From an uncultured Aquificales bacterium (GTDB taxonomy: Bacteria; Thermosulfidibacterota; Thermosulfidibacteria; Thermosulfidibacterales; Thermosulfidibacteraceae): a stretch of 64,000 bases of DNA. The stretch is taken from NCBI GenBank assembly GCA_964453345.1, contig CAYVOC010000001.1, positions 28,468 through 92,467 of the forward strand, given 5' to 3'. A program made the translations under genes and the position numbers. Of the stretch, positions 11,374-60,922 are shown piece after piece. Position 1 is the stretch's first letter; each line of letters starts with the position of its first letter. The notes under the pieces were generated by a model. That model had not been told where the DNA came from. It worked only from the letters and a program-made list of their open reading frames with translations, and made no database searches.

Positions 11374-11406
11374 AAAATCAGCAACAAAAAATTGAGGAGG
11401 TTTGCC

Positions 11407-38275: not shown

Positions 38276-41200
38276 ATGGGGGAGTTTGTTCATCTTCACC
38301 TTCACACCCAATACAGCCTGCTTGATGGCGCCATAAGGATAAGGGATCTGTTTCCCAGGGCGAAGGAGCTTGGTTACCATGCGGTTGCCATAACGGATCA
38401 CGGCAATATGTTCGGGGTGCTGAAGTTTTATCAGGCTGCCAAAAGCAACGAGGTCAAGCCCATAATCGGATGCGAGATGTATGTGGCGCCCGGATCGAGG
38501 CACGATAGGCACTCCACCAGGGGCGGCGCCGATGCTGCCCACCACCTCGTGCTTCTGGTGAAAAACGAAGAGGGCTACAAGAATCTCATAAAGCTCGTCA
38601 CCATAGGCTACCTTGAAGGATTCTACTACAAGCCGAGGATAGACAAGGAGGTTTTGAGGGAACACAGCGAGGGGCTTATCGCCTTAAGCGCTTGTCTCAA
38701 GGGGGAGATACCCCAGCAGGTCCTTTCGGGAAATGTGGATGGGGCGAAAAAGGCCCTCTATGAGTATCTGGACATCTTTGGCAAAGAGAACTTCTATCTT
38801 GAGCTTATGAGGCACGGCCTTGAGGATGAGGAGAGGGCCAATGAGGGGCTTTTAGAGCTTGCCAGAAGGGAGGGGGTTGGCGTTGTTGCCACCAACGACT
38901 GCCATTACCTCTTCCCGGAGGATGCCGAGGCCCACGACATACTCCTCTGCGTTCAGACGGGCAAAAGGATCACCGATGAGAACCGCATGCGGATGGATAC
39001 CGATCAGCTATACTTCAAGTCTCCCGCCGAGATGATTTCCCTGTTTGCCGATATTCCGGAGGCCATTGAGAACACCCTGAGGATAGCGGAAACTTGCAAC
39101 TTCGACTTTGTTCTGGGCGAACCCAAGCTTCCCGTGTATGAGGTGCCGGAGGGGCACACCCTTGAAAGCTACCTCAGGGAGCTTGCCTATCGGGGCCTTG
39201 AGCAGAGAAGAGAGAATGGGGAGCTTTACGATAAGATTCCCTATGAGGAGTATCTGAAGAGGCTGGAGTATGAGCTTTCCGTCATAAACCAGATGGGTTT
39301 CCCGGGCTATTTTCTGATAGTCTGGGACTTCGTCAATTACGCCAAGACCCATGGAATACCGGTGGGGCCGGGAAGGGGATCTGCGGCGGGTTCGCTTGTC
39401 TCCTATGTTCTGGGTATAACCGACATAGATCCCCTGAGGTGGGGTCTGCTCTTTGAAAGGTTCCTCAACCCCGAAAGGGTCTCTATGCCTGACATAGATA
39501 TAGACTTCTGCAAGGAGAGAAGGGATCTGGTTATAGATTATGTCCGCAAAAAGTATGGAGAGAAGAACGTTGCCAAGATCCTTGCCGTTGGAACCCTCGC
39601 CACCAGGGCCGCTGTGAGGGATGTGGGCAGGGCCTTGGGCTTCTCGCCCTCGGAGGTTGATAGAATAGCGAAGCTCTTTCCCCAGTCCCAGGATGTGACG
39701 GTTGAGGATGCCATAAGGCTTGAGCCCAAGATCCAGCAGGAGATGGAGAAGAATCCGAAGGTGAAGCGCCTTGTGGAGATAGCCAGCAGATTGGAGGGGT
39801 TGTGCAGGCAGGCCTCTACCCATGCCGCAGGTGTGGTCATAACGCCCGAGGAGCTTACAGAGTATGTGCCTTTATACAAAAACGAAAAGGAGAACGAGAT
39901 AACCACCCAATACGACAAGGATGATCTTGAGGCCCTGGGACTTCTCAAGATGGATATGCTGGGTCTCAGGACCCTCACCGTTATAGACACCACCCTGAAA
40001 CTGATAGAGACCTACAAGGGCGAGAGGGTTGATCTGAAGCACCTCCCGCTGGATGATGAGGAGACCTATCGGCTTCTGCAGTCCGGGAGGACCCTCGGGG
40101 TTTTCCAGCTTGAAAGCTCTGGAATGAGGGAGCTTCTGAGGCGTTTAAGGCCCTCAAGGTTTGAGGATCTGATAGCCCTCGTTGCCCTATACAGGCCCGG
40201 ACCCTTGGGTTCAGGCATGGTGGACGAGTTCATTGAGAGAAAGCACGGCAAAAAGCCCATAGAGTATGAGCTGCCCCAGCTTGAGCCTATTCTTGCAGAG
40301 ACCTACGGGGTCATCCTGTATCAGGAACAGGTTATGAAGATAGCATCTGAGGTTGCCGGCTTCACCCTGGGGCAGGCCGACCTTTTGAGAAAGGCCATGG
40401 GCAAAAAGAAGAAGGATCTCATGGCCCAGATGAGGGAGAAGTTCATAACGGGGGCGGTGGAGAGGGGTGTGGATAAGAAGCTCGCCGAGGATCTCTTTGA
40501 TAAGATGGCCAAGTTTGCCGAATACGGATTCAACAAGTCCCACTCGGCCGCCTACGCCATGGTTGCCTATCAGACCGCCTATCTCAAGGCCCACTATCCG
40601 GTTGAGTTTATGGCCGCCCTCATCTCCAGCGAAATAAACAACACTGAAAAGATCTATCTGTATCTCCAGGAATGCAGGGAGATGGGGATTGAGGTCTATC
40701 CTCCCGATGTGAACGAGAGCCATGTTATATTCAGGGTTGATGGGAATTCCCTGAGATTTGGCCTTGCCGCCATAAAGGGGGTGGGGGAGGCCGCCGCCGA
40801 AGCGATCGTGAAGGCGAGAAAGGGTGGTCCCTTTGAGGACTTTTACGACTTCTGCAAGAGGGTTGCTTCCCACAGGGTTAACAGAAAGACCATAGAGGCG
40901 CTTATAAAGGCGGGGGCGCTCGACAGATTCGGCGACAGAAACGCTCTGCTTGCTTCCCTTGATCAGTTCCTCGATGCAGCCACAAGATCCAGCAGATCCT
41001 CAAGTGTGCAGTTGAGCTTCTTTGAGATAGGCAGCATGGAGGAGGAGAAGCCCAAGCTTGTTGATGCGGTTCCTGCAACCCCCCGGGAGAAGCTTGCCAT
41101 GGAGAAGGAGGCCCTGGGCTTTTACCTCAGCGGCCATCCCTTGGATACGGTGGAGGAGCATCTTAAGAGGTATCGCATAACGACCACGGGCATGCTGGAG

Positions 41201-41734
41201 GAAAGGGAGGATGGTGAAGAGGTGATCCTTGCCGGGATGGTGGTCTCCATAAAGGAGATAACCACGAGAAACGGCGAAAGGATGGCCTTTGTCAGCTTTG
41301 AGGATAGGGAGGGCAGAACCGAGATCGTGGTCTTCCCGGATGTCTATAAGGAGACCGATATGATCTTTGCCTTGGATGAACCCATTCTTGTCAGGGGGAC
41401 AGTCACCACCGATGCGGCCAACGATAGCAAGAAGATAATAGCCTTGGATGCTGCAAGGCTGGAGGAGGGCTTTAAGGATAGGGAGCTTGCCTCTAACGCA
41501 AGATGCTGTATCCTTATTCTTGAGGATACGGTTTCCAAGGAGCTGGTGGAGACGGTGAAGAGGGAGGCAGAGGCGAACGCCGGTAATTCCCCTCTCTTCC
41601 TTAGAGTGGTAAACGGTGAGTATCAGGTTGTCATAAACACGGGCGTTGCAGTGAACGATGCCTTCGCTGCGAAGATGAGGGCCATGGGCCTTAGCATAAC
41701 CTTTGCAGAGGTGCCAAATGGTAAAACCGCTTGA
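38276..41734 (+). CDS. dnaE: DNA polymerase III alpha subunit
   Basis: [45 protein letters not shown] fold; no intein-sized insertion. Confidence 0.97.
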
Positions 41735-42683
41735 GTTTGAGAAGGATATATACGAGATTGAGAAAAAGATAGAGGAGTTAAGGTCCATAGGAACCGGCGC
41801 CCAGCTTGATATAGAGAGGGAGATCCGGACCTTAGAGCGCAAGGTCAAAAGAAAGCTGATAAAGCTATACAGGGAGCTTACCCCCTGGCAGAGGGTTCAG
41901 GTTGCAAGGCATCCCAATCGTCCTTACACCCTCGATTATGTGAACCACATGCTTGAGGATTTTGTGGAGTTTGCAGGGGATAGAAGGTTCGGTGATGATA
42001 AGGCTATAGTTGCGGGCATAGGCAGGTTTGAGGGGATGACCGTTGCTGTAATAGGCCATCAAAAGGGCAGAAATACCAAGGAGAACATAGAGAGGAACTT
42101 CGGAATGGCTCACCCTGAGGGCTACAGGAAGGCCCTGAGGGTGGCCAAGCTTGCCGAAAAGTTTGGTTTTCCAATTCTCACCTTTGTGGACACCCCCGGC
42201 GCATATCCCGGCATAGGCGCCGAGGAAAGGGGACAGGCCGAGGCCATAGGGGAGAATCTTTACGAGTTTGTGGCTCTTCGGGTTCCCATTGTGGTCTCCA
42301 TCATAGGAGAGGGGGGATCCGGTGGCGCCCTTGCCATAGGCGTGGGTGACAGAATCCTCATGCAGGAAAACGCTGTATATGCGGTTATATCCCCTGAGGG
42401 ATGCGCATCTATTTTGTGGAGGGATGCTTCAAAGGCTCCCTTGGCTGCGGAGGCCCTGAAGCTGACGGCTAAGGATCTTTACGAGCTTGGGGTTATAGAC
42501 GAGATCGTTAAGGAGCCCATAGGTGGGGCGCACAGGGATCACAGACTTGCCGCCAGCATATTGAAGAGGGCCATCAGAAGAAACCTGAAGGAGCTTGTGA
42601 AGATCCCTCCCGACGAGCTCGTGGAGAGAAGGTATGAGAAATTCAGAAGAATAGGGGTGTTTAAGGAAGAACCACAATCCTGA
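41718..42683 (+). CDS. accA: acetyl-CoA carboxyltransferase alpha subunit
   Basis: [30 protein letters not shown]. Confidence 0.96.
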
Positions 42684-43440
42684 AACCGACGGAGTCGTAG
42701 TTTCTCTCAGGTGACAGCCCCCTTCTTGCAGAGCACCTCAGGACCTTTTTCTTGCTCTCCCAGCCTCCCCCCTTCACAACCCTTCTCTCCTTTGGGGTGG
42801 GGAGGTTGGGAAGGCCATACCAGGAGTCGGTCCACTCCCATGCGTTGCCTATGAGATCGCAGATCCCGATGCTGTTGGGCTTAAAACTGCAGACGGGGCC
42901 GGTTTCCCTGTAGCCGTCCCTTTCGGATCTGCCGCTAAATCCCGACCAGAAGTTTGCGTTATCGTCTATGGCCTCATCGCTCTTTCCAAGCTTGCAGGCG
43001 TATTCCCACTCCTCTTCCGTGGGTAGCCTCACCTTTCTTTTGATCTTTTTGCTCAGCCACTCGGCAAAGGCGTGTGCGTCATACCAGTTGACGCAGACAA
43101 CGGGATGGTCTTTCCCCTGCTTGAACATGGGTTTTGCGGTGTCCTCGCATCCCCATAAATCCTTCTTCTTGGGGGTGTATCCCGTCTCCTTTACGAATTT
43201 CTCCCACTGAGAAATAGTGATTTCGGTTTTGGAGATCCAGAATCCCCTTTTGATGCAGACCTTCCTTTCGGGCTTTTCGTCAAAGTAGCAGTTTTTGTTT
43301 TTCGCTTTGCATCCCATCTGAAAGCATCCGGGCGGGATGTATATGAAGGTTATTCCGGTAACTTTCTCTGTCCATGTGTTGGGGTGTGCCCATAACATCT
43401 GTGCAGAAAACAGCAGTAAAAGGATCAGAAGGTATCTCAT
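42661..43440 (-). CDS. secreted FGE/SUMF1-fold protein (NirV-like, lacks FGE catalytic cysteines)
   Basis: signal peptide, [29 protein letters not shown]. Confidence 0.85.
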
Positions 43441-43471
43441 AGGGATTAACCCTCCGGATTTTTGATGTTGG

Positions 43472-43499
43472 AAAAGGGGAGGGGAAGCGCCCCCTCCCC
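43472..43499 (-). terminator. intrinsic terminator after the octaheme cytochrome gene
   Basis: GGGGAGGGG/CCCCTCCCC 9-bp stem followed by TTTT on the minus strand. Confidence 0.7.
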
Positions 43500-43509
43500 G
43501 GTTTTGCTC

Positions 43510-44871
43510 TTAGTAGGGAGCGGAGGACATAACAGGCGAGAGCTCCTCTATCTTGTTGTGCTTTATCCTCCAGTTGTAGATGGCCTGCATGTCCTTGTAA
43601 ACCTGGAACATCTGGAAGAATCCATGCCAGTGGGCGTAGTCCGGTGCATCCATTGCGGCACCCTGTCTGGCCCTTCTGCCGGTGTGGTGCCAGAAGTAGT
43701 AGTAGAGTTCCTGGAAGGCGTCGCTCCAGGGATCCTTCTTGAGCAGGCCCTTGGACTTGAGGTCCTTCAGCATGGCCACCACCTTGTCGTAGTAGAAGTT
43801 GTAGAGCTTCACAGCATCGTCAAACTTCTTGAAGAAGTTCTTTGTATGGGTGGTGGAGTGGCAGTTTTCGCAAACCTTCATCATCAGCTCTCTGCCCTTG
43901 GGACCGAATCCGCGCTCAGGTCCGGCGAAGGGCTTCTTCAGATACTCCTCTGTGCCTCTGACCATGCTCTTTTTGTGCATGAGGTCCCAGTAGAGCCTTT
44001 CGCCAACATTGTGGGTGGTCTTGAGATCCCCTATGCCGCTCATGTGGCACACGGCGCAGGTGGGTGCTTCATAGTCTCCAGGCTCCCATGTGTCGGGGGC
44101 GCTGTCCCACTTCCACTTCTCGCCGTGGGCGAGATACAACTGGCCGTGGGCGCTCTCCAGGTAGATCTCTATATCGGGGTGATCGGGTCCAAGGTGGCAC
44201 CTGCCGCAGGTGTCGGGCTTTCTGGCCTGCTCAATGGAGAATTTGTGCCTGTAGTGGCAGGCAACACAGTTGCCTATGCCGCCGTCGGGATACCTGGTTC
44301 CGATACCACCGGGCCATCCGGCAACGGGCTTCTTGTCCGGTCCGAGCTTGACCACAGCTCCATGACACATCTGACAGCCGGTTCTTCTTGTGGCTGTGGT
44401 TCTGGGATCCCCCTTGGGCAGACCGGCGAACTGCCCGCCCTCGTAGTATTCCTGCAGTTTTCTGAACTTTGCAACTTCCACCACGGGACGGGATGCGAGC
44501 CTTGCGTGGGCGCTCTTGGTGAACTGCTCAACCTCTGTGGGGTGGCACTTGGCGCAGGTCTTGGGGGACACCATGGGGGAGATGTAGATGTTGGTTCCCC
44601 TTATCCCGTCGCACTGGCTCGCCATGGGGGAACTTTTGGGAACCACGTGACAGTCGTAGCAGGAGACGCCCGCATGCGCCATGCGGCTCTCCTTCCACTG
44701 GAGCACTATTCCGGGGGTCTTTTTGGTGTGGCACTCGATACACTGAAGGGCTTCCTTGGAGAATCCGCGCTTGACCACCAGGTTGGTGTTCTTAACCAGA
44801 TTCGGGTAGTATTGGGCCCATAGCCCCGACCAGGCAAGGATGGTAATTAACAGGACAAGACACCTCATCAT
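43510..44871 (-). CDS. octaheme cytochrome c, hydroxylamine oxidoreductase family (epsilon-HAO-like)
   Basis: signal peptide; 8 CXXCH motifs (CIECH, CYDCH, CAKCH, CQMCH, CVACH, CGRCH, CAVCH, CENCH); [20 protein letters not shown]. Confidence 0.88.
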
Positions 44872-45431
44872 GGCGCTACACCTCCTTTATCTTTTTTGGC
44901 TTCTTCAAGAAGCGCTGCCAACACATCTCCATGTCCCACCGTGTGATGGCAGGAAACGCAGGTCTTTTTGGTTTCCCCTATGAGATACGCCTTGTGTGCG
45001 GTTATGGCTTTGATGGGGATTCCGTTGCCTATCAGCTCCTTGTGGCATTCCTTGCACCCGGACTCGTAGGCCTTGTGAACATAGGGCTTTTTGTGCTTCC
45101 AGTGTTCAACCCAATGCTCTGCGGAGGCCTTGGCACCGGTCAGGTGAACATACATGTCGTTGACGCCGTAGAATATCTTTGCCGCTAAGTATTTTATGAT
45201 TCCCTCGTGGGGCAGGTGGCAGTCGCTGCACTTGGCCCTCACAACCCCCCTGTGGTTCAGCCCGTGGGCCGCTTTGACCCAGGTCTGGTAAAAGACCTTC
45301 ATCTCGTGGCAGGATGCGCAAAAAGAGACCTTGTTTGAATGAATCAACTGGCTTGCCGAGATAAGCCCTACAATGGCTGCTACAAAGACGCCTACAATAA
45401 AGCCCAGAATCGCTTTCTTCAATCCCCTCAC
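44868..45431 (-). CDS. NapC/NirT (cM552/NrfH-like) membrane tetraheme cytochrome c
   Basis: N-terminal TM; CASCHEM, CSDCH, CKECH, CVSCH..VGH; TTG at 45422 is a plausible alternative start. Confidence 0.9.
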
Positions 45432-45506
45432 CTCCTTCCCTTTGAGATTTCGGCCTTTTTTATAAAAAGATATTGGCGGGTTCTGGGGCTTTCAACATTT
45501 TTCAGG

Positions 45507-45539
45507 CGTTAAATTTCTGTTAAAGTCTGTTACTAACAG
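45507..45539 (-). promoter_or_regulatory. TTAACA-type direct-repeat operator upstream of the tetraheme/octaheme operon
   Basis: minus strand GTAACA-N4-TTAACA-N5-TTAACG; contains the 17-mer also found at 48548-48564; candidate TTGAAA-N17-TATCTT promoter just downstream. Confidence 0.65.
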
Positions 45540-45577
45540 TTGTCCCGTGAGGGTTTGCCTCCTATAGTGATAGTGAA

Positions 45578-46174
45578 ATGGGAGATATGGTGGGGGTGAT
45601 CTGTATCCTTACGGGTGGAGAGAGTCGGAGAATGGGGAGGGACAAGGCCGGGCTTTCCTTTCGTGGCAGGACCTTTTTAGAGCATATGGTTTGCAAGGCG
45701 CGGGAGCTTTCCTTCAGGGTCGTTCTCTCGGTGAAGAGAAAAAGAGAAGAGTTTTCCCGATACGAGCAGATAGAGGATGTCAAGGGGCGTGGCCCCATCG
45801 CCGGGATATACTCCGTCCTCCAGCGCTTTGATAGGGTGCTGTTTGTGCCTGTGGATATGCCCATGCTGGATACGTCGGTTTTGAAGATGCTGTGGGAGGC
45901 GTCGCAGGGGTATGATGTAACGGTGTGTGAGGTTGAAGGCAGGCTCCAGCCTCTGGTGGGGGTCTATACAAGGGGCGTTTTGCCTCTGCTGGAGGAGGCG
46001 ATAGAGTCGGGAGACTACAGCATCAGGCGGGTTGTTTTGAAGTGTGATAGGGCGAGGATCCTCAAAGCCGAGGATTTCGGGTGGGACCCTGCGTGGTTTT
46101 TGAATGTGAATACCCCTGAGGATGTGGAGGTGCTGAATGTCCTTCAGGATGGTGGATGTTTCCGGCAAGTTTGA
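45578..46174 (+). CDS. mobA: molybdenum cofactor guanylyltransferase
   Basis: [31 protein letters not shown]. Confidence 0.9.
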
Positions 46175-47054
46175 GACGAAAAGGTTTGCGAGGGCCTCTG
46201 GAAGGATAAGGCTTCCCAAGGAGGTGGTGGATCTCATCAGGGAGGGTAGGGTGAAGAAGGGAGATGTTCTGAGGGCCTCCGAGATTGCGGGAATGATGGG
46301 GGCAAAGAGAACCTTTGAGCTTCTGCCCTTCTGCCATCCCATCCCCTTTGATGCGGTTGAGGTGAGGGCGGAGCTCGAGGAGGACGGTGTGAGGGTGGAG
46401 GCCACCGTCAGCGGAGTGTGGAGGACCGGATACGAGATGGAGGCTGTTACGGCGGTGGTTGTTGCACTCACCAACGTTTACGATATGTGCAAGGCCTACA
46501 CGGGGGAGATGGTTATAGAGGATGTGAGGGTTGTTGAAAAGGGTGGGGGCAAAAGCGATTGGTATGACGATCTGAGCGGGTTGAGGGTGGCGATTATAGT
46601 GGTGAGCGATTCCGTTTACGAGGGGAAAAGGGAAGATAGAAGCGGCAAGGCCTTGAGGGAAATGTGCGAAGAGCTGGGGGCGAAGGTTGTTTGGGAGAGG
46701 GTGGTGCCGGACGAGGTGGACGCCATAAAAGGCGCCATAGAGGAGGCGTCGGGTGTGGCGGATCTCATACTCACCACGGGGGGGACCGGAGCTTCCTTCA
46801 GGGATGTGACCCCGGAGGCGAGTCAGGACCTTCTTGTCAAGGAGATGCCCGGATTGGCGGAGGCTATGAGGATACTCGGCGTGAGGTTCACCCCCAGAAC
46901 CCTTCTTTCAAGGGCGAAGGCGGGCATTGTGAAGGAGGGATGTGTCTTGATAAATCTTCCCGGGAGTGTGAGGGGCGCTACCGAGAGCCTGTCCATGGTG
47001 GCCCCCCTGATCAAGCATCTCATAGAGATGTCAAGGGGTGGAGGGCACGAATGA
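46137..47054 (+). CDS. moaC: bifunctional MoaC / MogA-MoaB protein
   Basis: MVDVSGK, LLPFCHP, TGYEMEA, YDMCK, then VSD..REDRSG, TTGGTG..RDVTPEA, NLPGS. Confidence 0.9.
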
Positions 47055-47362
47055 AGTATGGCCCCAACGTCGGAATGATACTCATTCATAAAGGTATAGT
47101 GAGGGGATTCTCCAGGGATGGCTCTCCTGTAAAGGGCATGGTGGTTGAGTATGACCCCTCTGAAGTAGAGGCGATTGTTGAGGAAATGCTGAACAGAGAG
47201 GGCATAGAGCACATAGATGTTAAGATAAATTCCGGCAGGTTATCTGTGGGCGATGAGATAATGACGGTGACGGTTGCAGGAAGATACAGGAGGGATGTTC
47301 TGCCCGTTATGGATGAGCTTTTGAGCAGAATAAAAGCGGTAGTGAAGGAGAGAGAGTTTTAG
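47051..47362 (+). CDS. moaE: molybdopterin synthase large subunit MoaE (short form)
   Basis: [31 protein letters not shown]-coupled start at 47051. Confidence 0.75.
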
Positions 47363-48282
47363 CCTCCTATTTCAACCATCTGGCTTTTGCTTTCCCATCT
47401 GGGCTTGTGTATGCGCCCTTTAATCGCGAAAAGCTCTGTCAGTATCTCCTTTAGCCTCTTTTCCGGTTCCTTTCCCCTCAGTATTTTTCTGATGTCAACT
47501 TCGTGCCTGCTGTGCAGACATGCCTTGAGCCTGCCGGAGGCAGTCACTCTTAACCTATCGCATCCCCTGCAGAAGGGGCTGGAGACCGGTGTTATAAATC
47601 CCACCTTTCCCTTAAGTTCCGGCACGTAAAAGACCTTCGCCACCCCCTCTGTCCCTGCGGCCCTCAAGCTGTATCTTTTTTCTATAATCTCCATGAGCTC
47701 TGTGTAGGGCATGAACAGATCATGAAACCTCTCTCTGGTGTGAGGGAAGGGCATAAGTTCGATGAACCTCACCTGTATCCCCTTCGGAAGGAAGGTTTCC
47801 ATAAATTTTGTTGCCTCATCATGGTTCAGGCCTTTCATTATAACGGTGTTAATTTTGACTTCCAGCCCCTGTCGCCTGGCCTCTTCTATTCCTGACAGCA
47901 CTGAATCCAGCAGATCCCTTCCGGTTATGGCCCTGTATTTTTCCGGGGAGAGGGTGTCAATACCCACGTTTACCCTTTTTATCCCCGCTTCTTTTAGATC
48001 CGCGGCGAACCTAAACAGAAAAGAACCATTTGTTGAAAGGTATATTGGTATGTTCAAGGAGGCTATTTTTTCTATAAGTGAACATATGTTTCTTCTGAGA
48101 AGCGGTTCTCCGCCGGTTATTCTTACCTTTCTCAGACCAAAGTTTTTGAGGATTTCTACTAAGGTTGTTAGCTCCTCAAAGCTTAAAAGTGAACTTTTAG
48201 GAAGCTTTTTGTAGTTGTCAGGGAAACAGTATATGCATCTGAGATTGCAGCGGTCCGTTACGGAAATTCTGAGATACATCAC
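47359..48282 (-). CDS. moaA: GTP 3',8-cyclase
   Basis: YLRISVTDRCNLRCIYC, TGGEPL, FCRGCDRLR..G.LKAC, C-terminal GG. Confidence 0.93.
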   Translation of the reverse strand: MMYLRISVTDRCNLRCIYCFPDNYKKLPKSSLLSFEELTTLVEILKNFGLRKVRITGGEPLLRRNICSLIEKIASLNIPIYLSTNGSFLFRFAADLKEAGIKRVNVGIDTLSPEKYRAITGRDLLDSVLSGIEEARRQGLEVKINTVIMKGLNHDEATKFMETFLPKGIQVRFIELMPFPHTRERFHDLFMPYTELMEIIEKRYSLRAAGTEGVAKVFYVPELKGKVGFITPVSSPFCRGCDRLRVTASGRLKACLHSRHEVDIRKILRGKEPEKRLKEILTELFAIKGRIHKPRWESKSQMVEIGG

Positions 48283-48443
48283 TCTTTGCTTATGGGTTCT
48301 TCTATCTCCCTTGCGGCCTTTCTGAACTCCTTTAGGGCCTGTCCCGCACCTCTTGCGAATTCAGGAAGTTTTTTGGCGCCAAAAAGGAGCATTACCACAA
48401 AGCATATGAGAAGCAGTTCAGAAAATCCTATCCCTCCTATCAT
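48279..48443 (-). CDS. tatA: twin-arginine translocase TatA (54 aa, absent from the ORF track)
   Basis: MIGGIGFSELLLICFVVMLLFGAKKLPEFARGAGQALKEFRKAAREIEEPISKE; GGAGG RBS; its stop overlaps the moaA GTG. Confidence 0.9.
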   Translation of the reverse strand: MIGGIGFSELLLICFVVMLLFGAKKLPEFARGAGQALKEFRKAAREIEEPISKE

Positions 48444-48517
48444 GTCTTCCTCCCGCAACTGTTGACTTTACACTTTAATTTACATATCCATGCCTGACAA
48501 TTCCACACTTCAAGTCG

Positions 48518-48566
48518 TGTTAATTTTTTTAACATCAGTTAACACTTCTTTAACAGAAATTTAAAC
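48518..48566 (+). promoter_or_regulatory. TTAACA direct-repeat operator upstream of the porin-nap operon
   Basis: TTAACA at 48529, 48539, 48550 and TTAAAC at 48561 (10/11/11-bp period); inverted TGTTAA at 48518. Confidence 0.7.
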
Positions 48567-48639
48567 GATTCCTCTATTGAGCTTTTGAGATAGTGAATGA
48601 AATAATATGCTCAAAGGAAAAATGTGCAGGAGGGAGAGG

Positions 48640-50142
48640 ATGAGGGGGAGAAGTTGGGCTTTGATCTTTTCTCTGATCCTTTCTGTAATTTTTCTGGGGT
48701 GGACCCTTGGTGCGGCGAAGGTCTATAATGTGAAAGAGGTAAAACTCAGGTTGGATTTCAGTGAGCAGGTGAGGATGGAATACTGGAACACCTTTGATAA
48801 CGGAAAGCCCGGGCTTGACGACAGCTACAGCTTCTACTCCAGCAAGGCGAGGCTGGGAGCGGGTGTGAGCTGGAAGTATTTTGATGCCTATGTTCAGCTG
48901 CACTACACCCAGTTCTTCGATCTACCCGATGACGGCATGTTCGGAACGGGTGTCCTCTATCATAAGTTCAACAACCTTGAGGCCTATCAGGCGGGCAGGC
49001 GTAAAGAAGCAGCCGACAGCCCCGGTTATGCGGCGATTTCCCAGGCCTGGATAGCGGCTAAGGTGCCCTGGGTGAAGGGGCTGAAGGTTAAGCTTGGCAG
49101 GTTTGCCTACAATTCCGGTCTGGAGGCCGGGGCGAAGAATCCAACCATAAAGATCCTTAAAAAGACCAGAATCTCCCAGAGGCTGATCGGAACCTTTGAG
49201 TGGTCCAGGGTGGGCCGTTCCTTTGATGGCTTCCAGGTGGTTTACGACAGGCCCTACTGGAACCTTTCCCTCACCGCCGTCTATCCCACCGCCGGTGGCT
49301 TCTATCTCAAGAGGGACGAGAACGAGGTGAACGGCTATAAGATGAGGGATATAAGCATTGTGGCGGCGGCCCTTTCTCTGAAGGATTCCTTTATAGACGG
49401 GCTGGATGCCCAGGCCTTCTACTACTACTACAACGACGACAGGGGCCTGTATAAGGCCGGGAAGGGCGCCGATCCTGAGATTCACACCGTTGGCGGGCAT
49501 GTGATCTTTACCAGACCCTTGGGACCGGGCGCCTTTGACCTTCTCTTCTGGGGTGCCTACCAGTGGGGAACCTGGGGCGCCAACGGGAGGATTCTTGACC
49601 ATGACGCCTACGCCTTTGCCGTTGAGGGCGGATACAAGTTTACCTCCCTCGCCTTTAAGCCCTGGATCAGGGCTGGATATTTCTATGGTTCCGGTGACGA
49701 TGATCCCAACGATGGGGACCATGAGACCTTCTTCATGATGATCCCCACCCTCAGAATCTATGCGAGGACCCCCTTCTATAATCTTATGAACACCGAGTAT
49801 GTGTTCGGTCAGCTGATCTTCAAGCCCCTGAAGAATGTGGTGGTGAGGACCGACGTCACCAAGCTGTGGTTAACAGAGGATAAGGACGGGTGGTATCTGG
49901 GTTCCGGTGTTTGCAGGCCCGATGTGTTCGGTTATTCCAGCAAGCCGTCCGGCGGGGATGATGATCTTGCCACCATGTGGGATATTTCCGCCACCATAAA
50001 GAACATCTTCAACTATGCGGGATTCAAGGTGAATCTGGTTCTCTACTACTCCCATGTGTGGGGCGGCGATGTGATAGAGAACAACTTCAAGAAGGATGAG
50101 GACATGGATTTCTTCTACACAGAGCTTCAAATAAAATTTTAA
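48640..50142 (+). CDS. outer-membrane beta-barrel porin (alginate-export-family-like)
   Basis: signal peptide, alternating aromatic beta-strands, RSFDG, Y.YGSGDDDP.DG..ETF, C-terminal Phe; ATG 48640 has a GGAGG RBS. Confidence 0.8.
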   Translation: MRGRSWALIFSLILSVIFLGWTLGAAKVYNVKEVKLRLDFSEQVRMEYWNTFDNGKPGLDDSYSFYSSKARLGAGVSWKYFDAYVQLHYTQFFDLPDDGMFGTGVLYHKFNNLEAYQAGRRKEAADSPGYAAISQAWIAAKVPWVKGLKVKLGRFAYNSGLEAGAKNPTIKILKKTRISQRLIGTFEWSRVGRSFDGFQVVYDRPYWNLSLTAVYPTAGGFYLKRDENEVNGYKMRDISIVAAALSLKDSFIDGLDAQAFYYYYNDDRGLYKAGKGADPEIHTVGGHVIFTRPLGPGAFDLLFWGAYQWGTWGANGRILDHDAYAFAVEGGYKFTSLAFKPWIRAGYFYGSGDDDPNDGDHETFFMMIPTLRIYARTPFYNLMNTEYVFGQLIFKPLKNVVVRTDVTKLWLTEDKDGWYLGSGVCRPDVFGYSSKPSGGDDDLATMWDISATIKNIFNYAGFKVNLVLYYSHVWGGDVIENNFKKDEDMDFFYTELQIKF

Positions 50143-50154
50143 AGGAGGGTGGCT

Positions 50155-50538
50155 GTGAAGAGGTGGTTTTTGTTGGTGGCGTTTTTGGCGCTGGCCGCCT
50201 GTGTTAACACAGGGAATGCACAGCGGCCCGCTGCCAAGACAGAGCCGAAAAAAGCAGAGGTTGCGGGACACCCTCAGCTGACGGACCAGGAGAAGCTCAT
50301 CGCCTGCTCCCAGTGTCATAGGGATGTGACCCCTGATGTGTATAACGAGTGGTATAACTCCGTTCACGGTATCGCCAATGTCAAGTGCTTCCAGTGCCAT
50401 GGAACCTTTGAGGACTTCCATGTGGTTCCCCAGCTCAAAAAGTGCGAGGCCTGCCATGCAAGGGAGGTGTCCCACGCGCCTAAAGGGAGGGATTGCTGGA
50501 GCTGTCATCCTTCCCACAGGTTTACCGTTCACAAGTAA
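50155..50538 (+). CDS. small tetraheme cytochrome c lipoprotein (NapM-like)
   Basis: lipobox LAAC; CSQCH, CFQCH, CEACH, CWSCH. Confidence 0.85.
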   Translation: MKRWFLLVAFLALAACVNTGNAQRPAAKTEPKKAEVAGHPQLTDQEKLIACSQCHRDVTPDVYNEWYNSVHGIANVKCFQCHGTFEDFHVVPQLKKCEACHAREVSHAPKGRDCWSCHPSHRFTVHK

Positions 50539-50556
50539 ATGAGGGGAGGTGGAAGG

Positions 50557-52965
50557 ATGGGCCTTTCCAGAAGGGAGTTTTTGAAGAGAATGGCTGCGGT
50601 CACCGCAGCCTCCATGGTGGGGTTGCATCTGCCCCTTGACCTTTCGGGAAACGAGGCCAAGGCCGCCACTGCGGATAAATGGGTAAGGGGGACCTGCAGG
50701 TTCTGCGGCGTGGGGTGCAGGGTTGAGCTTGGAATAAAGGACGGCAAGCCCGTTGCCATAAGGGGAGTGCCGGACTCCAAAACCAACTTCGGCTTTTTGT
50801 GCATGAAGGGAATGCTCTTTTATAAGATAATGGTTCATCCGGACAGGCTGAAGAAACCCTTGTATCGTGAAAGGAAGGATCAGCCCTTCAGGGAGATATC
50901 CTGGGAAGAGGCCCTGGATATAGCCGCCAAAAAATTCGCTGAGGCCGTTAAAAAGTATGGACCAAACTCTGTGGCCTATTACGGATCGGGACAGGCGCTG
51001 ACCGAAGAGACCTATCTCTTCCAGAAGATATTCAGGGCAGGACTCAGGACGAACAACGTGGAGGGCAACCCCAGGCTCTGCATGGCCAGTGCGGTTGGCG
51101 GATATCTTACCTCCTTTGGAGCCGACGAGCCCATCGGTGCCTATGAGGATATAGAGAAGGCCTACTGCTTCTTCATAATCGGGAGCAACATGGCCGAGGC
51201 TCACCCCGTGCTCTTCAGGAGGGTGATGAGAAGGAAGCTCAGTCATCCCGGCGAGGTGAAGGTGATAGTTGCGGATCCGAGGATATCCCCCACATCCAGA
51301 ATAGCCGATCTGCATCTGCAGTTCAGACCCGGAACGGATCTGGCCCTGCTCAACGCCATGGCCTATGTGATAATCGAAGAAAAACTCTACGATGAGGGCT
51401 TTATAAAGGATTACTGTGTCTTCAAGGTGGGCAAGGGCAAAACGGTCAGCTTTGAGGATTACAAGCGCTTCTTACAGGATTACACCCCCGAGAAGGCCGC
51501 CAGGATCTGCGGCGGCAACATAACCCCGGAAAAGATCAGGCAGGCCGCCAGGTGGTTCGCCAAATCCAAGGCAACCATGTCCATGTGGACCATGGGTCTT
51601 AACCAGAGAAGCAGGGGCGTGTGGGCGAACAACCTGGTCCACAACCTGCACCTTCTTACGGGACAGCTCTGTAAGCCGGGAGCCGACAGCTTCTCCCTCA
51701 CGGGCCAGCCCAACGCCTGCGGTGGTGTGAGGGAGGGTGGCGGTCTGTGCCACATACTTCCCGGACACAGGCCCGTTAAGGTTGCAAAGCTGCGCCACGA
51801 GGTTGAAAGGCTCTGGGGCGTTCCCGAGGGGAGGATCCCTCCCAAGCCGGGTTATCACACCATTGCCATGTTCAGAGCCGTGAACGAAGGGAAGATAAAG
51901 GCCCTGTGGGTCAACTGCACAAGCCCCGCCCAGAGCCTGCCCAACTGCGATCTCTACAGAAAGGGGATGGCGAGGGACGATGTCTTTATCGTGGTCACGG
52001 ATATATTCCCCACCAAGACCACAAAACTTGCCAACCTCGTTCTGCCCACCGCCTTCCACTTTGAGAAGACGGGGGTTTACGGATGCACGGAGAGGAGATC
52101 CCAGCTCACGCTCAAGGCCATAGATCCCCCCGGCGAGGCTAAACCCGAGGTCTGGATAGTCAGGGAGTGGGCCCTGAGGCTGGCGAAATACCTGAAGGAT
52201 CCGGTTATAAAGAAGCTGGTTGAGCCCTTCATCGGTCTTGAGCCGGGCTTTGAGCTGCCCAAGGCCATCTGGACCGAATACACCCAGAAGCTGACCAAGG
52301 GCAGGGACAACGATCTTTCCGGTGCCACCTATGAGGTGCTTATGAAGCGGCCCGATGGGGTCCAGTGGCCTGCTCCCACGGTGGAGATAGCCATGAGGGG
52401 TGGGACCTACAAGAAGTTTGTCAGGGGAATAGATCCCCTTGCCGACAGGCACGCCAAGGACACCAAGCCCTATCAGTTCTACGGTCCTGCCCATAAGGAT
52501 AAAAAACTCTACATATGGCTCAGGCCCTACAAGGGCGCTGCTGAGGAACCCGATGCCGAGTATCCCTTCTATCTGTCAACGGGAAGGGTTATCGATCACT
52601 GGCATACCTCAAGCATGACCGGAAGGATTATAGAGCTTCTCAGGGCCAATCCCTACGCCTATGTTGAGATTAATCCTAAGGACGCCAGAAGGCTCGGGAT
52701 CAAGCCCAACGATATGGTGGAGGTGGAGACCAGAAGGGGCAAGATCGTTCTTCCTGCCAAGGTGGTTGAGGGACCCATGGAGGGAATGGTCTTTGTATAC
52801 TGGCACGACATGGCCGAGGAGAGGATGGCGAATCGTGTCACCAAGGATGCCTTTGATCCCGGTTCCAAGGAGCCCGAATACAAGATCTGCGCCTGCAGGA
52901 TAAGGAGGGTTTCCGGTCCCAAGCCCTTGAAGCCCTTCGTGGAGGGAATGAGCAAGGCCATATAA
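50557..52965 (+). CDS. napA: periplasmic nitrate reductase catalytic subunit
   Basis: Tat signal SRREFLK, CRFCGVGC..C [4Fe-4S] motif, GSGQ, RLCMASAV (Cys Mo ligand), SLTGQPNACG, GR..DHWH. Confidence 0.93.
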   Translation: MGLSRREFLKRMAAVTAASMVGLHLPLDLSGNEAKAATADKWVRGTCRFCGVGCRVELGIKDGKPVAIRGVPDSKTNFGFLCMKGMLFYKIMVHPDRLKKPLYRERKDQPFREISWEEALDIAAKKFAEAVKKYGPNSVAYYGSGQALTEETYLFQKIFRAGLRTNNVEGNPRLCMASAVGGYLTSFGADEPIGAYEDIEKAYCFFIIGSNMAEAHPVLFRRVMRRKLSHPGEVKVIVADPRISPTSRIADLHLQFRPGTDLALLNAMAYVIIEEKLYDEGFIKDYCVFKVGKGKTVSFEDYKRFLQDYTPEKAARICGGNITPEKIRQAARWFAKSKATMSMWTMGLNQRSRGVWANNLVHNLHLLTGQLCKPGADSFSLTGQPNACGGVREGGGLCHILPGHRPVKVAKLRHEVERLWGVPEGRIPPKPGYHTIAMFRAVNEGKIKALWVNCTSPAQSLPNCDLYRKGMARDDVFIVVTDIFPTKTTKLANLVLPTAFHFEKTGVYGCTERRSQLTLKAIDPPGEAKPEVWIVREWALRLAKYLKDPVIKKLVEPFIGLEPGFELPKAIWTEYTQKLTKGRDNDLSGATYEVLMKRPDGVQWPAPTVEIAMRGGTYKKFVRGIDPLADRHAKDTKPYQFYGPAHKDKKLYIWLRPYKGAAEEPDAEYPFYLSTGRVIDHWHTSSMTGRIIELLRANPYAYVEINPKDARRLGIKPNDMVEVETRRGKIVLPAKVVEGPMEGMVFVYWHDMAEERMANRVTKDAFDPGSKEPEYKICACRIRRVSGPKPLKPFVEGMSKAI

Positions 52966-52966
52966 A

Positions 52967-53001
52967 CGGGTTCGGGGAGGGATAACTCCCTCCCCGGCTC
53001 G
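52967..53001 (+). other. intercistronic GC-rich hairpin between napA and napD
   Basis: cgggttcggggaggga-taac-tccctccccggctcg, about 15-bp stem, no U-tract. Confidence 0.6.
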
Positions 53002-53016
53002 ATTAGGAGGTTTTGG

Positions 53017-53304
53017 ATGCCCATCGGCGGTTTTGTGGTGACTGTGTTGCCGGATCACAGGGATCAGGTGGCGGGCAGGGTTGAGGCCATTGAGGGTGCT
53101 GAGGTTTACGGGTGGGATGATAAGGGAAACCTTGTGGTGGTTATAGAGACGGAGACCTCGGATGATATGGAAAGGCTGGTTGATGAGATAAAGGAATACG
53201 ATGGGGTTGTATCCGTGGGCCTTGCCTATCTCTACTTTGAGGATGAGGTGGAAAAAATTGAGCGGGGAGAAATCAAACCGGAAATCCCGAGAAGAAAAAA
53301 TTAG
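53017..53304 (+). CDS. napD: NapA chaperone NapD
   Basis: 95 aa, IGGFVV, G.LVVVIE, GVVSVGLAY; follows napA. Confidence 0.88.
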   Translation: MPIGGFVVTVLPDHRDQVAGRVEAIEGAEVYGWDDKGNLVVVIETETSDDMERLVDEIKEYDGVVSVGLAYLYFEDEVEKIERGEIKPEIPRRKN

Positions 53305-53887
53305 CAGAAGGAATTTCTTGGCCCTTCTTTCCACATCCTTTGTATCCTTGCTTGCCTTGGGTGATAAGTCGGCTGAGGCTTCCCTCTTCAAATCCCCTGT
53401 CGCCACCAACAGGTTGAGGCCCCCCGGGGCTGTTCCCGAGGAGATTTTTGCCGGAAAGTGCATCAGGTGCGGCCGTTGTGCCGAGGTGTGTCCCTATCGG
53501 TGCATACGTGTGCTGGATATAAGATGGGGTGTCTGGGCGGGAACCCCTCTCATCTTTGTGGATGAGAACCCCTGCTATCTGTGTATGAAGTGTGTGGAGG
53601 TCTGTCCCACGGGAACCTTAGTCAAGATAAAGCAGAGTGAGACCAGGATGGGGCTGGCGGTTATAAACAAGCGTTACTGTGTTACCTGGAGGGAGATGGC
53701 TCTGTGCCGCAGCTGTTACAACGCCTGCCCCTTCAAGGATGTGGCCATAAGGCTGGAGGAACTCAAGCCCGTGGTTGTGGAGGACAAGTGCACGGGCTGT
53801 GGGCTGTGCGTTCACGCCTGCCCCATGAATCCGAAGGCGATAAACGTTGAACCCATATACTCCTTCGCCAGGGTCAAGTGGAAATGA
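53258..53887 (+). CDS. napG: NapG/MauM ferredoxin-type protein
   Basis: Tat SRRNFL, LRPPGA, CIRCGRC..CP, C..C..C..CP repeats; TTG start at 53258 inferred from a GAGGT RBS. Confidence 0.88.
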   Translation: MSGEKSNRKSREEKISRRNFLALLSTSFVSLLALGDKSAEASLFKSPVATNRLRPPGAVPEEIFAGKCIRCGRCAEVCPYRCIRVLDIRWGVWAGTPLIFVDENPCYLCMKCVEVCPTGTLVKIKQSETRMGLAVINKRYCVTWREMALCRSCYNACPFKDVAIRLEELKPVVVEDKCTGCGLCVHACPMNPKAINVEPIYSFARVKWK

Positions 53888-54666
53888 AGAGGATCAAGTA
53901 TAGAAACCTCAGGTTTCTTTCGCTGACGGCGGCCTTTTTGATCATTCTGGTCAATCCCTTTTTGAACTACTACTTTCACTTCAACTTTATCCAGGGGTGG
54001 TATCAGTCCATAGGCATAGGCAAGCTCTGGTTCGTTTCACCCCTTGAGGGTCTGGAGTCCATACTCGTTTCCAAGCTCATCTACCTTCCCCTGATTATAG
54101 CCATGCTTATTCCTGTTACCGTTGCCCTGTTTCTGGGCAGGGTCTTCTGCAGCTGGATATGTCCCATAAGCTTTCTCTCCGAGCTTTCGGATAGGCTCTG
54201 GAGGAGGGTTTACAAGAGGGATAGGCTGCTTCTTCCAAAGTGGTTTCTGTGGTTTTCCCTTATCACGGAGCTTCTGCTTGCCATGATTATCGCTGCTCCC
54301 ATCTTCGTCTTTCTTTCCCCTCCCGGTCTTGTGGGAAGGGAGATTATGATGATGGTCTTCTTCAAGAGATTTGCCCCGGAGGGCGTTATCGTCTTTGCCG
54401 TTTTGCTGATGCACTTTGTGACCAGAAGGTTTTTCTGCAGATACTTCTGCCCCTTGGGGGCGCTGCTTGCCTTTCTGGGTATGAAGAGAAAGCTTGTGGT
54501 GAAAAGGCAGAAGGATCTGTGCGTTAACTGCGGCGCCTGCGATAGGGTGTGTCCCTTGGGCATAGATCCTTCAAAGATGGATAAGCCCTCTGCTTACTGC
54601 TGGAACTGCGGGGAGTGCGTTGATGTCTGCAAAAAATCGGCCATCCGTTTCAAGTGGGAGCTGTAG
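53884..54666 (+). CDS. napH: NapH/MauN membrane ferredoxin (quinol dehydrogenase)
   Basis: TM helices, GRVFCSWICP, RFFCRYFCPLG, two CxxCxxCxxxC motifs. Confidence 0.9.
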   Translation: MKRIKYRNLRFLSLTAAFLIILVNPFLNYYFHFNFIQGWYQSIGIGKLWFVSPLEGLESILVSKLIYLPLIIAMLIPVTVALFLGRVFCSWICPISFLSELSDRLWRRVYKRDRLLLPKWFLWFSLITELLLAMIIAAPIFVFLSPPGLVGREIMMMVFFKRFAPEGVIVFAVLLMHFVTRRFFCRYFCPLGALLAFLGMKRKLVVKRQKDLCVNCGACDRVCPLGIDPSKMDKPSAYCWNCGECVDVCKKSAIRFKWEL

Positions 54667-54669
54667 GTC

Positions 54670-55293
54670 ATGAAGGTTGTGTGTATATGCGGGCCCCACA
54701 ACAGCGGAAAAACAACCCTGATGAAAAGATTGATAGAGGAGCTTTCGCAAAAGGGGCTTTGGGTAAGTGCGGCCAAATCCACCAAGCATAGGGATCTGTT
54801 TCTGGAAACCGGAAGGGATAGCTCCATCCTTGTGGATGCGGGAAGCCGTGAGGTGGGGGTTTTTGAACCGAAAAGAACAGTTTTCTTTTTGGAGGGAGCC
54901 GTTTCGCCGGAGCTGATCCCCTTTATGTTTACCTGTGATGTGCTGCTGCTGGAGGGCTTTCGGCACAGCCCGTTTCCAAAGATAGCCATCTACAAGGGTG
55001 ATGATGAAGACTACTGGCGGGACGTCGATAATGTGGTGGCGGCTATTGCGCCGCCTTCTGTTTCCGTTCCCTGGCAGGTTCCCCGCTTTCTCTTTGAGGA
55101 TGTGGAAAGGATAGCGGACTTTATTCGGCAAGAAGCACCGGACTTTGAAGGGGTGCTGCTTGAGGTCAACGGCAGAGTTGTGGGAATGAAGCCCTTTGTG
55201 CAGAGACTGCTCAGGGATGCGGTTATGGGAATTGTAAAGAACCTGAAGAATACGGAAAACGCCCGGCAGGTGAAAATAAGGATTGTGTTGTAG
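54670..55293 (+). CDS. mobB: molybdopterin-guanine dinucleotide biosynthesis protein B
   Basis: GPHNSGKTTL, DS..L..AG, LLEGF. Confidence 0.85.
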   Translation: MKVVCICGPHNSGKTTLMKRLIEELSQKGLWVSAAKSTKHRDLFLETGRDSSILVDAGSREVGVFEPKRTVFFLEGAVSPELIPFMFTCDVLLLEGFRHSPFPKIAIYKGDDEDYWRDVDNVVAAIAPPSVSVPWQVPRFLFEDVERIADFIRQEAPDFEGVLLEVNGRVVGMKPFVQRLLRDAVMGIVKNLKNTENARQVKIRIVL

Positions 55294-55297
55294 AACT

Positions 55298-55336
55298 GGG
55301 GGAGGGTGGGGGAGATCCCCCCGATCCCCCTTTTAT
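55298..55336 (+). terminator. intrinsic terminator of the nap operon
   Basis: G-rich/C-rich stem followed by TTTTATT between convergent genes. Confidence 0.65.
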
Positions 55337-58180: not shown

Positions 58181-58181
58181 C

Positions 58182-59201: not shown

Positions 59202-59204
59202 TGC

Positions 59205-60254: not shown

Positions 60255-60922
60255 TTTTCGGTGACCCTGTTGATGAGGATAAGAAGGCTTACCGATACTG
60301 CCGCCGCAATTGCTGCAAGAAGATTTGCCCTGTGAAACTGCCCCTCGGATACGGCGTTGTATATCTCTATGGGTAAGGTGGTGGTCTTGAAGGGAATGTT
60401 TCCTGCAAGCATCAGGGTTATGCCGAATTCCCCGAAGGATCTGGCGAAGGCCAGTCCTGTTCCTGCAAGTATCCCGGGCTTTGCCATGGGCAGGACGACC
60501 CTGAAAAAGGTGTATAGCCTTCCCCTTCCCAAGGTGTAGGAGACAAATATGTATTCGGAGTCAACCCCTTCAAAGGCGGCCTTTACCGTTTTGAAAAACA
60601 ACGGGAAGGATGCCACAAAGGCCGCCAGAACCGCCGCATGCCACGTGAAAAGAATTGTGCTTCCGAAAAGCTCATGGATCAACTTCCCCAAGGGGCCGCG
60701 TCTTCCAATGACCAGAAGCAGCAGGTATCCTGTGACGGTGGGGGCAAAGACCACGGGCAGCATAAAGAGGGTTTCAAGAAGTCCCTTCATCCTGAATCTG
60801 CTTCTGGCAAAGATGTAGGCGAGGGGAGTGCCTATGAGAACAACAAGCATGGTGGATATGAGGGAGACTTTTAAAGAGAGCTTTATGGCAAACAGCGCCT
60901 CCCTATCTGCAAACAACCTCAA
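60242..60922 (-). CDS. modB: molybdate ABC transporter permease
   Basis: LP...[20 protein letters not shown]. Confidence 0.92.

Follow-up and report, generated by a model that had tools for sequence, protein, structure and literature searches.

A 64,000-nucleotide stretch of genome from an uncultured Aquificales bacterium (contig CAYVOC010000001.1 of assembly GCA_964453345.1; hereafter the window) carries the same 17-bp word upstream of two operons for the respiration of nitrogen oxides, which raises the question of whether one regulator reads both copies, and which. One operon encodes a napC/nirT-type tetrahaem cytochrome and an octahaem Hao-like cytochrome (napC/nirT-hao), the other a porin and a periplasmic nitrate reductase (porin-napMADGH). 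The original prediction proposed that an OmpR-type response regulator encoded at 61606–62304 co-activates the two through this site, and comparative evidence from related genomes supports that proposal. We put at roughly 70% the probability that the phosphorylated regulator binds TTAAC(A) operators head-to-tail, most likely activating rather than repressing napC/nirT-hao and porin-napMADGH, and that its partner kinase senses through a periplasmic haem-c Cache domain, a reading drawn from gene and promoter sequence.

The word, CTTTAACAGAAATTTAA, lies at 48548–48564 on the plus strand and at 45525–45509 on the minus strand, each copy oriented with its own operon, as the original prediction had it. 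Within the window these are the only matches at up to three mismatches, against 0.12 expected, and none of 100 shuffles gave two or more. They are also the only exact copies in the whole genome that holds the window (G000; 64 contigs, 1,507,602 bp, 52% G+C, 99.9% completeness; relatives are labelled G001 and onward, related loci carry L-numbers and contigs C-numbers), where the next best are five matches with three mismatches each. The two copies have unrelated flanks, so the word is not part of a larger duplicated block. It belongs instead to arrays of pentamers. The hao array (45508–45533, minus strand) consists of GTAAC at 45533–45529, TTAAC at 45523–45519 and TTAAC at 45512–45508, in steps of 10 and 11 bp, and its copy of the 17-mer (45509–45525) is the promoter-proximal TTAAC-N6-TTAA(C) dimer. 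The nap array (48519–48565, plus strand) runs from (G)TTAAT at 48520 through TTAAC at 48529, 48539 and 48550 to TTAAA at 48561, in steps of 9, 10, 11 and 11 bp, and its copy of the 17-mer is again the promoter-proximal pair. At both promoters the repeats are direct (head-to-tail) and about one helical turn apart, the TTAAC pentamers stepping by 9–11 bp, in agreement with the predicted geometry; direct-repeat operators of this kind are textbook for OmpR/PhoB regulators. When 45350–48700 was compared with contigs from four other sequencing runs, none of the 40 differences listed (of 53) fell within the arrays, where about one would be expected by chance; differences occur at 45534 and 45538, just outside the outermost GTAAC, and at 48587/48588, in the spacer between the nap −35 and −10 elements. 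The eight sequencing runs listed as containing this sequence are all of DNA, none being recorded as RNA.

Promoters predicted by a consensus scan, independently of the repeats, fall directly downstream of both arrays. The predicted hao promoter (45467–45495, minus strand) has a −35 element TTGAAA at 45495–45490, a 17-nt spacer and a −10 element TATCTT at 45472–45467, and the predicted nap promoter (48577–48606, plus strand) a −35 element TTGAGC at 48577–48582, an 18-nt spacer and a TG-extended −10 element AATAAT. The last pentamer lies 12 bp (hao) and 11 bp (nap) from the predicted −35, which places both proximal dimers about 55–56 bp upstream of the inferred starts; at both promoters the site thus stands just upstream of the predicted −35, as in OmpR/PhoB-type operators. 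The TTG hexamer originally noted 13–14 bp past the 17-mer is indeed predicted to be −35-like in both cases, and the distances need a small correction, to 13 bp (hao) and 12 bp (nap). Since the nap −10 ends at 48606, the porin probably starts not at the listed 48607 but at an in-frame ATG at 48640, behind a strong ribosome-binding site (AGGAGGGAG). In this arrangement an OmpR/PhoB-type operator built of tandem TTAAC(A) units would have the 17-mer as its strongest dimer site, the one nearest the promoter, and from a dimer centred about 55–56 bp upstream of the inferred start the regulator would most likely activate promoters of the sigma-70 type.

A shared operator of this kind would lose its force if the motif were common in the AT-rich intergenic DNA of the genome, as the original prediction itself pointed out, and it is not common: a [GT]TAAC-N4-6-[GT]TAAC pair occurs in 5 of 401 intergenic regions of G000, two of which are the hao and nap promoters. 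Coding sequence was masked crudely for these counts, with 94% of the genome taken as coding and 93,824 bp as intergenic, and the regions counted are of at least 50 bp. Exact TTAAC-N5/6-TTAAC has four matches on both strands of the whole genome, all of them intergenic (one hao, two nap and one on contig C28). With up to one mismatch there are 26 intergenic matches, eight of them in the hao and nap promoters, and 34 coding ones, compared with 5 intergenic and 14 coding matches for a reversed control word. One-mismatch sites before an ABC substrate-binding/GGDEF pair, a DUF72 protein and a TPR/CsgG-like protein were set aside as having no nitrogen link and the wrong geometry. The C28 site (C28:9945–9960; locus L050 ~5946–5961, minus strand) is the only other exact TTAAC-N6-TTAAC in the genome and lies 57 bp upstream of an MCP-cheW-cheB-cheR operon, with no TTG hexamer at the usual distance; this operon may be a third target, perhaps for taxis toward nitrate, or the match may be due to chance.

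The genes downstream of the two arrays form coherent units. The first operon (42661–45431, minus strand) comprises the napC/nirT-type tetrahaem gene (44868–45431), the octahaem Hao-like gene (43510–44871) and a gene for an FGE-sulfatase-domain protein (42661–43440), and the same three genes recur in the same order in G001, G002, G003 and G008. The third gene, 55–59% identical in these four relatives, appears to be an accessory that is conserved with the Hao-type module. The second operon (48607–55293, plus strand) encodes the porin (Alginate_exp family), napM (50149–50538), napA (50539–52965), napD, napG-like and napH-like genes and mobB; NapA is 808 aa long and NapM is cytochrome c3-like, its naming following the napMADGH clusters described in the available passages of PMC5276818. 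A 528-aa protein encoded at 55333–56919 (minus strand), between the nap operon and moeA, has only a partial Glu_synthase-domain match.

Each array is flanked by two divergent operons, hao facing mobA-moaCB (moaC/moaB)-moaE and nap facing tatA-moaA. A predicted mobA promoter (45540–45568, plus strand; TTGTCC, 17 nt, TATAGT) begins 7 bp from the outermost GTAAC, and a predicted tatA-moaA promoter (48472–48500, minus strand; TTGTCA, 17 nt, TAAAGT) has its −35 19 bp from the outermost nap-side pentamer. Because each array sits between divergent promoters, the repeats may also co-control these two operons for molybdenum cofactor (Moco) synthesis. The original prediction was silent on the divergent Moco operons, on the likeness of the repeats to Pho boxes, which extends to pst promoters of relatives, and on a CRP/FNR regulator that probably acts upstream of the kinase operon; the last two are taken up below.

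The proposed reader of the repeats is encoded at 61606–62304 on the minus strand. It has the receiver and winged-helix output domains of the OmpR/PhoB family (Response_reg, 3.3e-31; Trans_reg_C, 5.9e-25), with MtrA, RegX3 and KdpE as its best solved-structure matches, so that its assignment in the original prediction holds, and it adjoins a sensor histidine kinase gene (62279–63820, minus strand) that overlaps it. The kinase has two transmembrane segments, a periplasmic Tll0287-like domain, HAMP, HisKA and HATPase. As regards possible autoregulation, the 180 bp upstream of the kinase gene contain one TTAAC and no pair; the contig forks there. The two genes head a same-strand, partly overlapping string (56975–63820, minus strand) that continues with modA, modB, modC, a moeA-like gene and moeA.

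Relatives connect this regulator with hao directly. Its orthologs, 55–78% identical, adjoin napC/nirT-hao in G002, G003, G008, G011 and G013 and in three loci from metagenome-assembled genomes (L134, L135 and L136). In G008 (78% identical), G003 (62%) and G002 (63%) the ortholog is preceded by a kinase gene and stands immediately upstream of napC/nirT-hao; the pair stands divergent to hao in G011 and G013 and to a hao fragment in G016, and in G002 the nap operon is in turn divergent from the kinase gene. Regulator orthologs (at least 57% identity) are present in 11 of the 18 genomes of the order, including all seven that combine a high-identity hao ortholog with a repeat-bearing hao promoter. 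None was found in G005 (88% complete), whose hao promoter keeps only one TTAAT. It seems that the pair, which heads hao in relatives, has been relocated in G000 to a place beside the genes for molybdate uptake and cofactor synthesis.

The association extends beyond the order. We scanned for kinases with patterns taken from the catalytic core of a kinase alignment; 76 of the 80 matches listed were generic kinases or G008's own contig, and among the matches listed at least four loci outside the order (L134–L137) span the sensor domain. L135 and L136 carry, on one strand, napC/nirT (50% identical to G000), hao (63–64%), porin (53%), napM (52–55%), napA (77–79%) and napD. A small cupin gene, the kinase and the regulator (56–58%) follow one another, in that order, on the divergent side. 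The region shared by the two directions contains GTAACA and TTAACA units 9–11 bp apart, a single array for a contiguous hao-nap cluster, and L134 shows the same arrangement at a contig end; in G000, Moco genes separate the hao part from the nap part, and each part is preceded by an array of its own. DnaE and GuaA of L135 and L136 are 51% and 63% identical to those of G000, and on this basis the two loci are placed only as outside the window's order, a first description of them as a different phylum having been dropped. The dnaE gene adjoins the hao/nap/regulator cluster in G000 (38276–41734, plus strand) as well as in L135 (10350–13841) and L136 (10237–13728), and this shared neighbourhood hints at old synteny and not at a recent transfer of the module. 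L135 also has, between the genes for hao and the porin, an inverted repeat rich in G+C with a T-rich run behind it (5350–5470, minus strand, seen by eye), possibly an attenuator inside the hao-nap cluster.

The single array of L135 and L136 bears on the idea that the repeats have no dedicated reader at all, and are either phased, A/T-rich bent DNA resembling an UP element or bound by a nucleoid protein, or the remnant of one ancestral promoter that was copied. One cluster with one array could be the source of both copies in G000, and the arrays are A/T-rich with the roughly 10.5-bp phasing that bends DNA. We nevertheless regard this idea as highly improbable. The unrelated flanks of the 17-mer speak against a recent segmental copy; a specific pentamer, beyond mere A/T richness, is kept where DnaE is only 51% identical; the pair is confined to those 5 of 401 intergenic regions; and the idea offers no explanation of why one regulator family co-occurs with the repeats and is linked to them.

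If a member of this regulator family reads the repeats, they should recur in the orthologous nap and hao promoters, a comparison proposed together with the original prediction. Some Hao match is found in 21 of the 41 relatives searched, with orthologs 72–89% identical in G001, G002, G003, G005, G008, G014 and G015 and a fragment in G017. A sense-strand [GT]TAAC-N4-6-[GT]TAAC pair is present in 11 of 16 hao or nap promoters from 12 genomes, compared with the 5 of 401 intergenic regions of G000, one of the 16 having an antisense pair as well. The hao promoter of G008 has the identical 16-mer TTAACAGAAATTTAAC, that of G001 reads GTAACAGAAAATTAAC and that of G011 has GTAAC-N4-TTAAC. Tandem arrays recur with three units in the hao promoter of G003 and with four units, exactly 11 bp apart, in those of G014 and G015. 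The distance to the promoter is kept too: of the 11 promoters in which it was read off by eye, 9 have a TTG hexamer 11–12 bp past the end of the last pentamer, and the promoter scans confirm this for the two of G000. NapA orthologs (E ≤ 1e-100) occur in 4 of the 18 genomes of the order (G000, G002, G008 and G001, where a contig end cuts the locus), and each of the three readable nap promoters has a TTAAC or TTAAA ending 11–12 bp before a TTG hexamer. NapA served as the anchor for these promoters in place of the porin, which lacks an ortholog in the order, its matches being in 3 of the 18 genomes and all at 33% identity or less.

Several observations weigh against the proposed operator and its reader. 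The strict pair is absent from 5 of the 16 promoters: the nap and hao promoters of G002 have only GTTAA-N5-TTAAC, spaced by 9 bp, the units of the G008 nap promoter lie 21 bp apart, and the hao promoters of G005 and G013 are degenerate, G005 keeping its single TTAAT. In the G002 hao promoter the TTG hexamer is 17 bp away from the last pentamer instead of the usual 11–12. The pattern behind the count of 11 in 16 was shaped on these same promoters, and the related genomes are not independent, so a binomial figure for the pair count overstates the evidence. Order-wide, the bare pentamer pair is not specific, a reversed control being equally frequent in several relatives (10 versus 11 in G008). 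Overlapping tandem matches are found order-wide only at the hao promoters of G014, G015 and G003, at the nap promoter of G000 and at one pst promoter of G002; with the bare pair unspecific, the case rests on position, tandem arrays and linkage. That linkage is itself imperfect in G000, where the pair adjoins neither hao nor nap and heads a modABC-moeA string 6–16 kb away. Two further points of this kind implicate other regulators: the same core stands at both pst and hao promoters in relatives that have both paralogs, so that sequence alone cannot assign a regulator to a site, and the kinase-regulator pairs of G009 and G015 have a CRP/FNR gene directly behind them, so that a second regulator may share the promoters.

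The first of these points raises the alternative that another OmpR-family protein is the reader, whether the second such regulator of G000 or a PhoB-type paralog in relatives, in which case the arrays would be true or cross-regulated Pho boxes tying ammonification to phosphate. In form the operator is Pho-box-like, judged by its sequence. Bacillus subtilis PhoP boxes are repeats of TT(A/T/C)ACA. According to the passages available of PMC1906773, SphR, the PhoB ortholog of cyanobacteria, binds repeats of CTTAACCT separated by 3-bp linkers, for example TTTAACCTttcGTTAACCT, and the motif of the window fits this documented Pho box. In the relatives the likeness extends to phosphate genes. G001 and G005 have the same TTAACAGAAAATTAAC core after a PhoB/PhoR-like pair and before pstS-pstC-pstA (G001:C124, locus L083; G005:C250, locus L082), where the PhoB-like regulator is about 41% identical to that of the window and its partner kinase has HAMP and PAS, and G002 has a tandem triplet before pstSCAB (G002:C48, locus L085). 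The recognition helix of the PhoB-type paralogs, TERSVDVHIKKLRDKLG, is nearly the same as that of the window regulator: PhoB-type regulators across the order read TER(T/S)VDVHI(K/R)xLRxKLG, and R-x-x-D-V-H-I-K/R-x-L-R is common to the PhoB and hao types.

This alternative encounters its main obstacle in G000 itself. The genome has exactly two Trans_reg_C proteins and neither has a PhoB-type helix; no PstS ortholog was found in it by tblastn, and PBP_like_2 and PhoU have no match above the cut-off. At 99.9% completeness, a genome lacking a PhoB-type regulator, PstS and PhoU leaves the operator no role as a working Pho box there: of the marks of a true Pho regulon, G000 has the 11-bp-period repeats of a TTAAC core, and neither phosphate-gene targets nor a Pho/Pst system. 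The second Trans_reg_C protein, encoded on C44, has a clearly different recognition helix (GGILKVYIHHLRQKLK) and unrelated neighbours, namely DUF3568, rubrerythrin-VIT and phosphoesterase genes. Moreover, the linkage seen in nine genomes is with the hao-type pair and not with the Pho pair. A reader of the OmpR type other than the window regulator is therefore, in our estimate, quite unlikely.

The second point raises the alternative that a CRP/FNR regulator resembling NssR or HcpR reads an inverted repeat, TTAAC-N4-GTTAA or GTTAA-N5-TTAAC, the direct repeats being only apparent and due to the TTAA core, which is its own complement. In Campylobacter, the site reported for NssR is TTAAC-N4-GTTAA. 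A perfect copy, the sole one in G000, lies in the nap array (48529–48542), GTTAA-N5-TTAAC recurs at the nap promoters of G000 and G002 and at the hao promoters of G002 and G008, and G009 and G015 have their CRP/FNR gene behind the kinase-regulator pair. Yet neither the shared 17-mer nor the hao promoter of G000 contains such a palindrome, so that no 5-N4-5 inverted repeat is common to the hao and nap promoters; the strand bias is strong, with sense pairs in 11 promoters and antisense pairs in one; and the arrays of three to four units at 11 bp in G014, G015 and G003 are a poor fit to one dimeric palindromic site. The one clear CRP/FNR protein of G000 (~10665–11335), encoded directly before hcp (11392–13014), is flanked by a different perfect palindrome, TTGAT-N4-ATCAA. 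Taken together, these features make a CRP/FNR protein a very unlikely reader of the repeats.

The same regulator may nonetheless touch the circuit at another level. Perfect TTGAT-N4-ATCAA palindromes occur at 11332–11345, between the CRP/FNR gene and hcp, and at 63877–63890, 57–70 bp upstream of the kinase gene; the latter is probably a site for the window's CRP/FNR regulator. Their positions suggest that an HcpR-like regulon includes or abuts the kinase-regulator operon, and make the CRP/FNR protein a possible upstream tier of the circuit. The third and last such palindrome of G000 is at C52:15–28, in a 55-base stretch that C52 shares with C1 (an assembly fork or a true repeat) and that is followed by a 4Fe-4S ferredoxin gene and a small NIR_SIR-domain gene. 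In G009 (L130, C206) the CRP/FNR gene that directly follows the kinase-regulator pair is itself followed by a gene for a 478-aa multihaem cytochrome; the three-gene unit of kinase, regulator and CRP/FNR, seen also in G015 (L131, C35), is not present as such in G000.

With the OmpR/PhoB-family regulator at 61606–62304 as the favoured reader, the next question is what its kinase would sense. The periplasmic domain is Tll0287-like (sCache_haem; PF11845, 1.1e-12) and carries a CRHCH motif at residues 156–160, of which C156, C159 and H160 are invariant in all six aligned kinase orthologs, so that CxxCH is kept. The available parts of two preprints (bioRxiv 10.64898/2026.02.01.703092 and 10.64898/2026.05.25.727664) describe the haem-c Cache family as recently defined and as enriched in several anaerobe-rich phyla, and name no target genes or operator for any of its histidine-kinase members. 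A signalling member from Pseudomonas azotoformans has properties and kinetics like those of a nitric oxide (NO) sensor in the available portions of the first (bioRxiv 10.64898/2026.02.01.703092); it differs from the kinase described here in ending in HAMP, without a kinase, and in pairing with a Ser/Thr kinase, as given in those of the second (bioRxiv 10.64898/2026.05.25.727664). Assuming haem attachment at the putative CxxCH site, the input of the window kinase is likely NO or another nitrogen-oxide or redox cue.

These elements combine into a concrete circuit. The partner kinase (62279–63820) would sense NO or another nitrogen-oxide or redox cue arising from nitrate respiration through its haem-c Cache domain, the phosphorylated regulator would occupy the TTAAC(A) units head-to-tail, and nitrate reduction by Nap and nitrite/hydroxylamine reduction by the Hao-type octahaem cytochrome would be switched on together. 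Its operator is defined, its regulator gene is named, and its two target operons together would reduce nitrate to ammonium. If true, it would provide the first proposed set of targets for any histidine kinase of the haem-c Cache family, whose only characterised signalling member, in the available parts of the preprints cited above, behaves as an NO sensor.

A wider scenario is more speculative, and we hold it only tentatively, with greater doubt than confidence. A PhoB-like lineage might have gained a haem-c Cache kinase while keeping its ancestral Pho-box code, giving rise to a portable, self-regulated ammonification module made up of the kinase-regulator pair, the TTAAC operator, napC/nirT and the Hao-type octahaem cytochrome, and porin-napMADGH, with Moco genes alongside. 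Where PhoB is also present, phosphate and nitrogen-oxide signals would then be wired together at the DNA, or the paralogs insulated only by the number and position of sites, and TTGAT-N4-ATCAA sites, at hcp and upstream of the kinase operon, would give an HcpR-like CRP/FNR regulator its place on the tier above.

How the proposed circuit relates to known systems can be considered from the side of its targets as well as of its operator. Genomes of thermophiles from hydrothermal vents are known to encode nitrate ammonification in which a Hao-type octahaem cytochrome takes the place of NrfA. Among dedicated regulators of ammonification, NarX and NarQ sense nitrate and nitrite through a P-box in a four-helix bundle, and NrfR is a sigma-54 activator. 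The closest functional parallel is NarX-NarL/NarQ-NarP of Escherichia coli and Shewanella, in which nitrogen oxides co-induce periplasmic nitrate reductase and an ammonifying nitrite reductase by way of two-component systems, as given in the available sections of a 2025 review (PMC12285233). NarL and NarP, however, are of the GerE/FixJ type and read heptamers, whereas the regulator here is of the OmpR type and is paired with a haem-c Cache sensor, in a genome with no GerE match above the cut-off and no LytTR domain. The branch controlled by NarX/NarQ also uses NrfA, in contrast to the Hao-type octahaem cytochrome that would serve here as the nitrite-reducing enzyme. NssA/B/C of Wolinella and NrfS-NrfR of Desulfovibrio, described in the same sections (PMC12285233), resemble the proposed circuit as dedicated activators of nap and ammonification in non-enteric anaerobes; the Nss regulator is of the CRP/FNR type, and neither Nss nor NrfR uses OmpR-type direct repeats. 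The table of nap and nrf regulators in that review holds only NarXL/QP, FNR/Crp/EtrA, NsrR, NssA/B/C and NrfS-NrfR, 'OmpR' occurring 0 times in its available text (PMC12285233). The literature searched names no regulator for Hao-type ammonification, and the available text of PMC5276818 does not contain 'regulat', 'two-component' or 'histidine kinase'.

From the side of the operator, the nearest relative is the Pho box read by PhoB, SphR and PhoP, which shares with the arrays described here the tandem direct repeats of 11-bp period, the placement at or just upstream of the −35, and the reading by a winged-helix response regulator that we propose. The differences concern what is connected to this code: the targets here are nitrate and nitrite respiration rather than phosphate uptake, the sensor of the partner kinase is a periplasmic haem-c Cache domain and not a PhoR-type PAS, and a −35 can still be recognised downstream of the arrays, which do not take its place. 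New with respect to the literature searched, in which nothing closer was found, is that an operator of this form and a kinase with a haem-c Cache domain are combined, by their sequence features, with nap and an octahaem cytochrome of the Hao type. A Pho-box-type DNA code would thus be reusable for respiration, which raises the question of cross-talk wherever the phosphate and nitrogen-oxide systems coexist.

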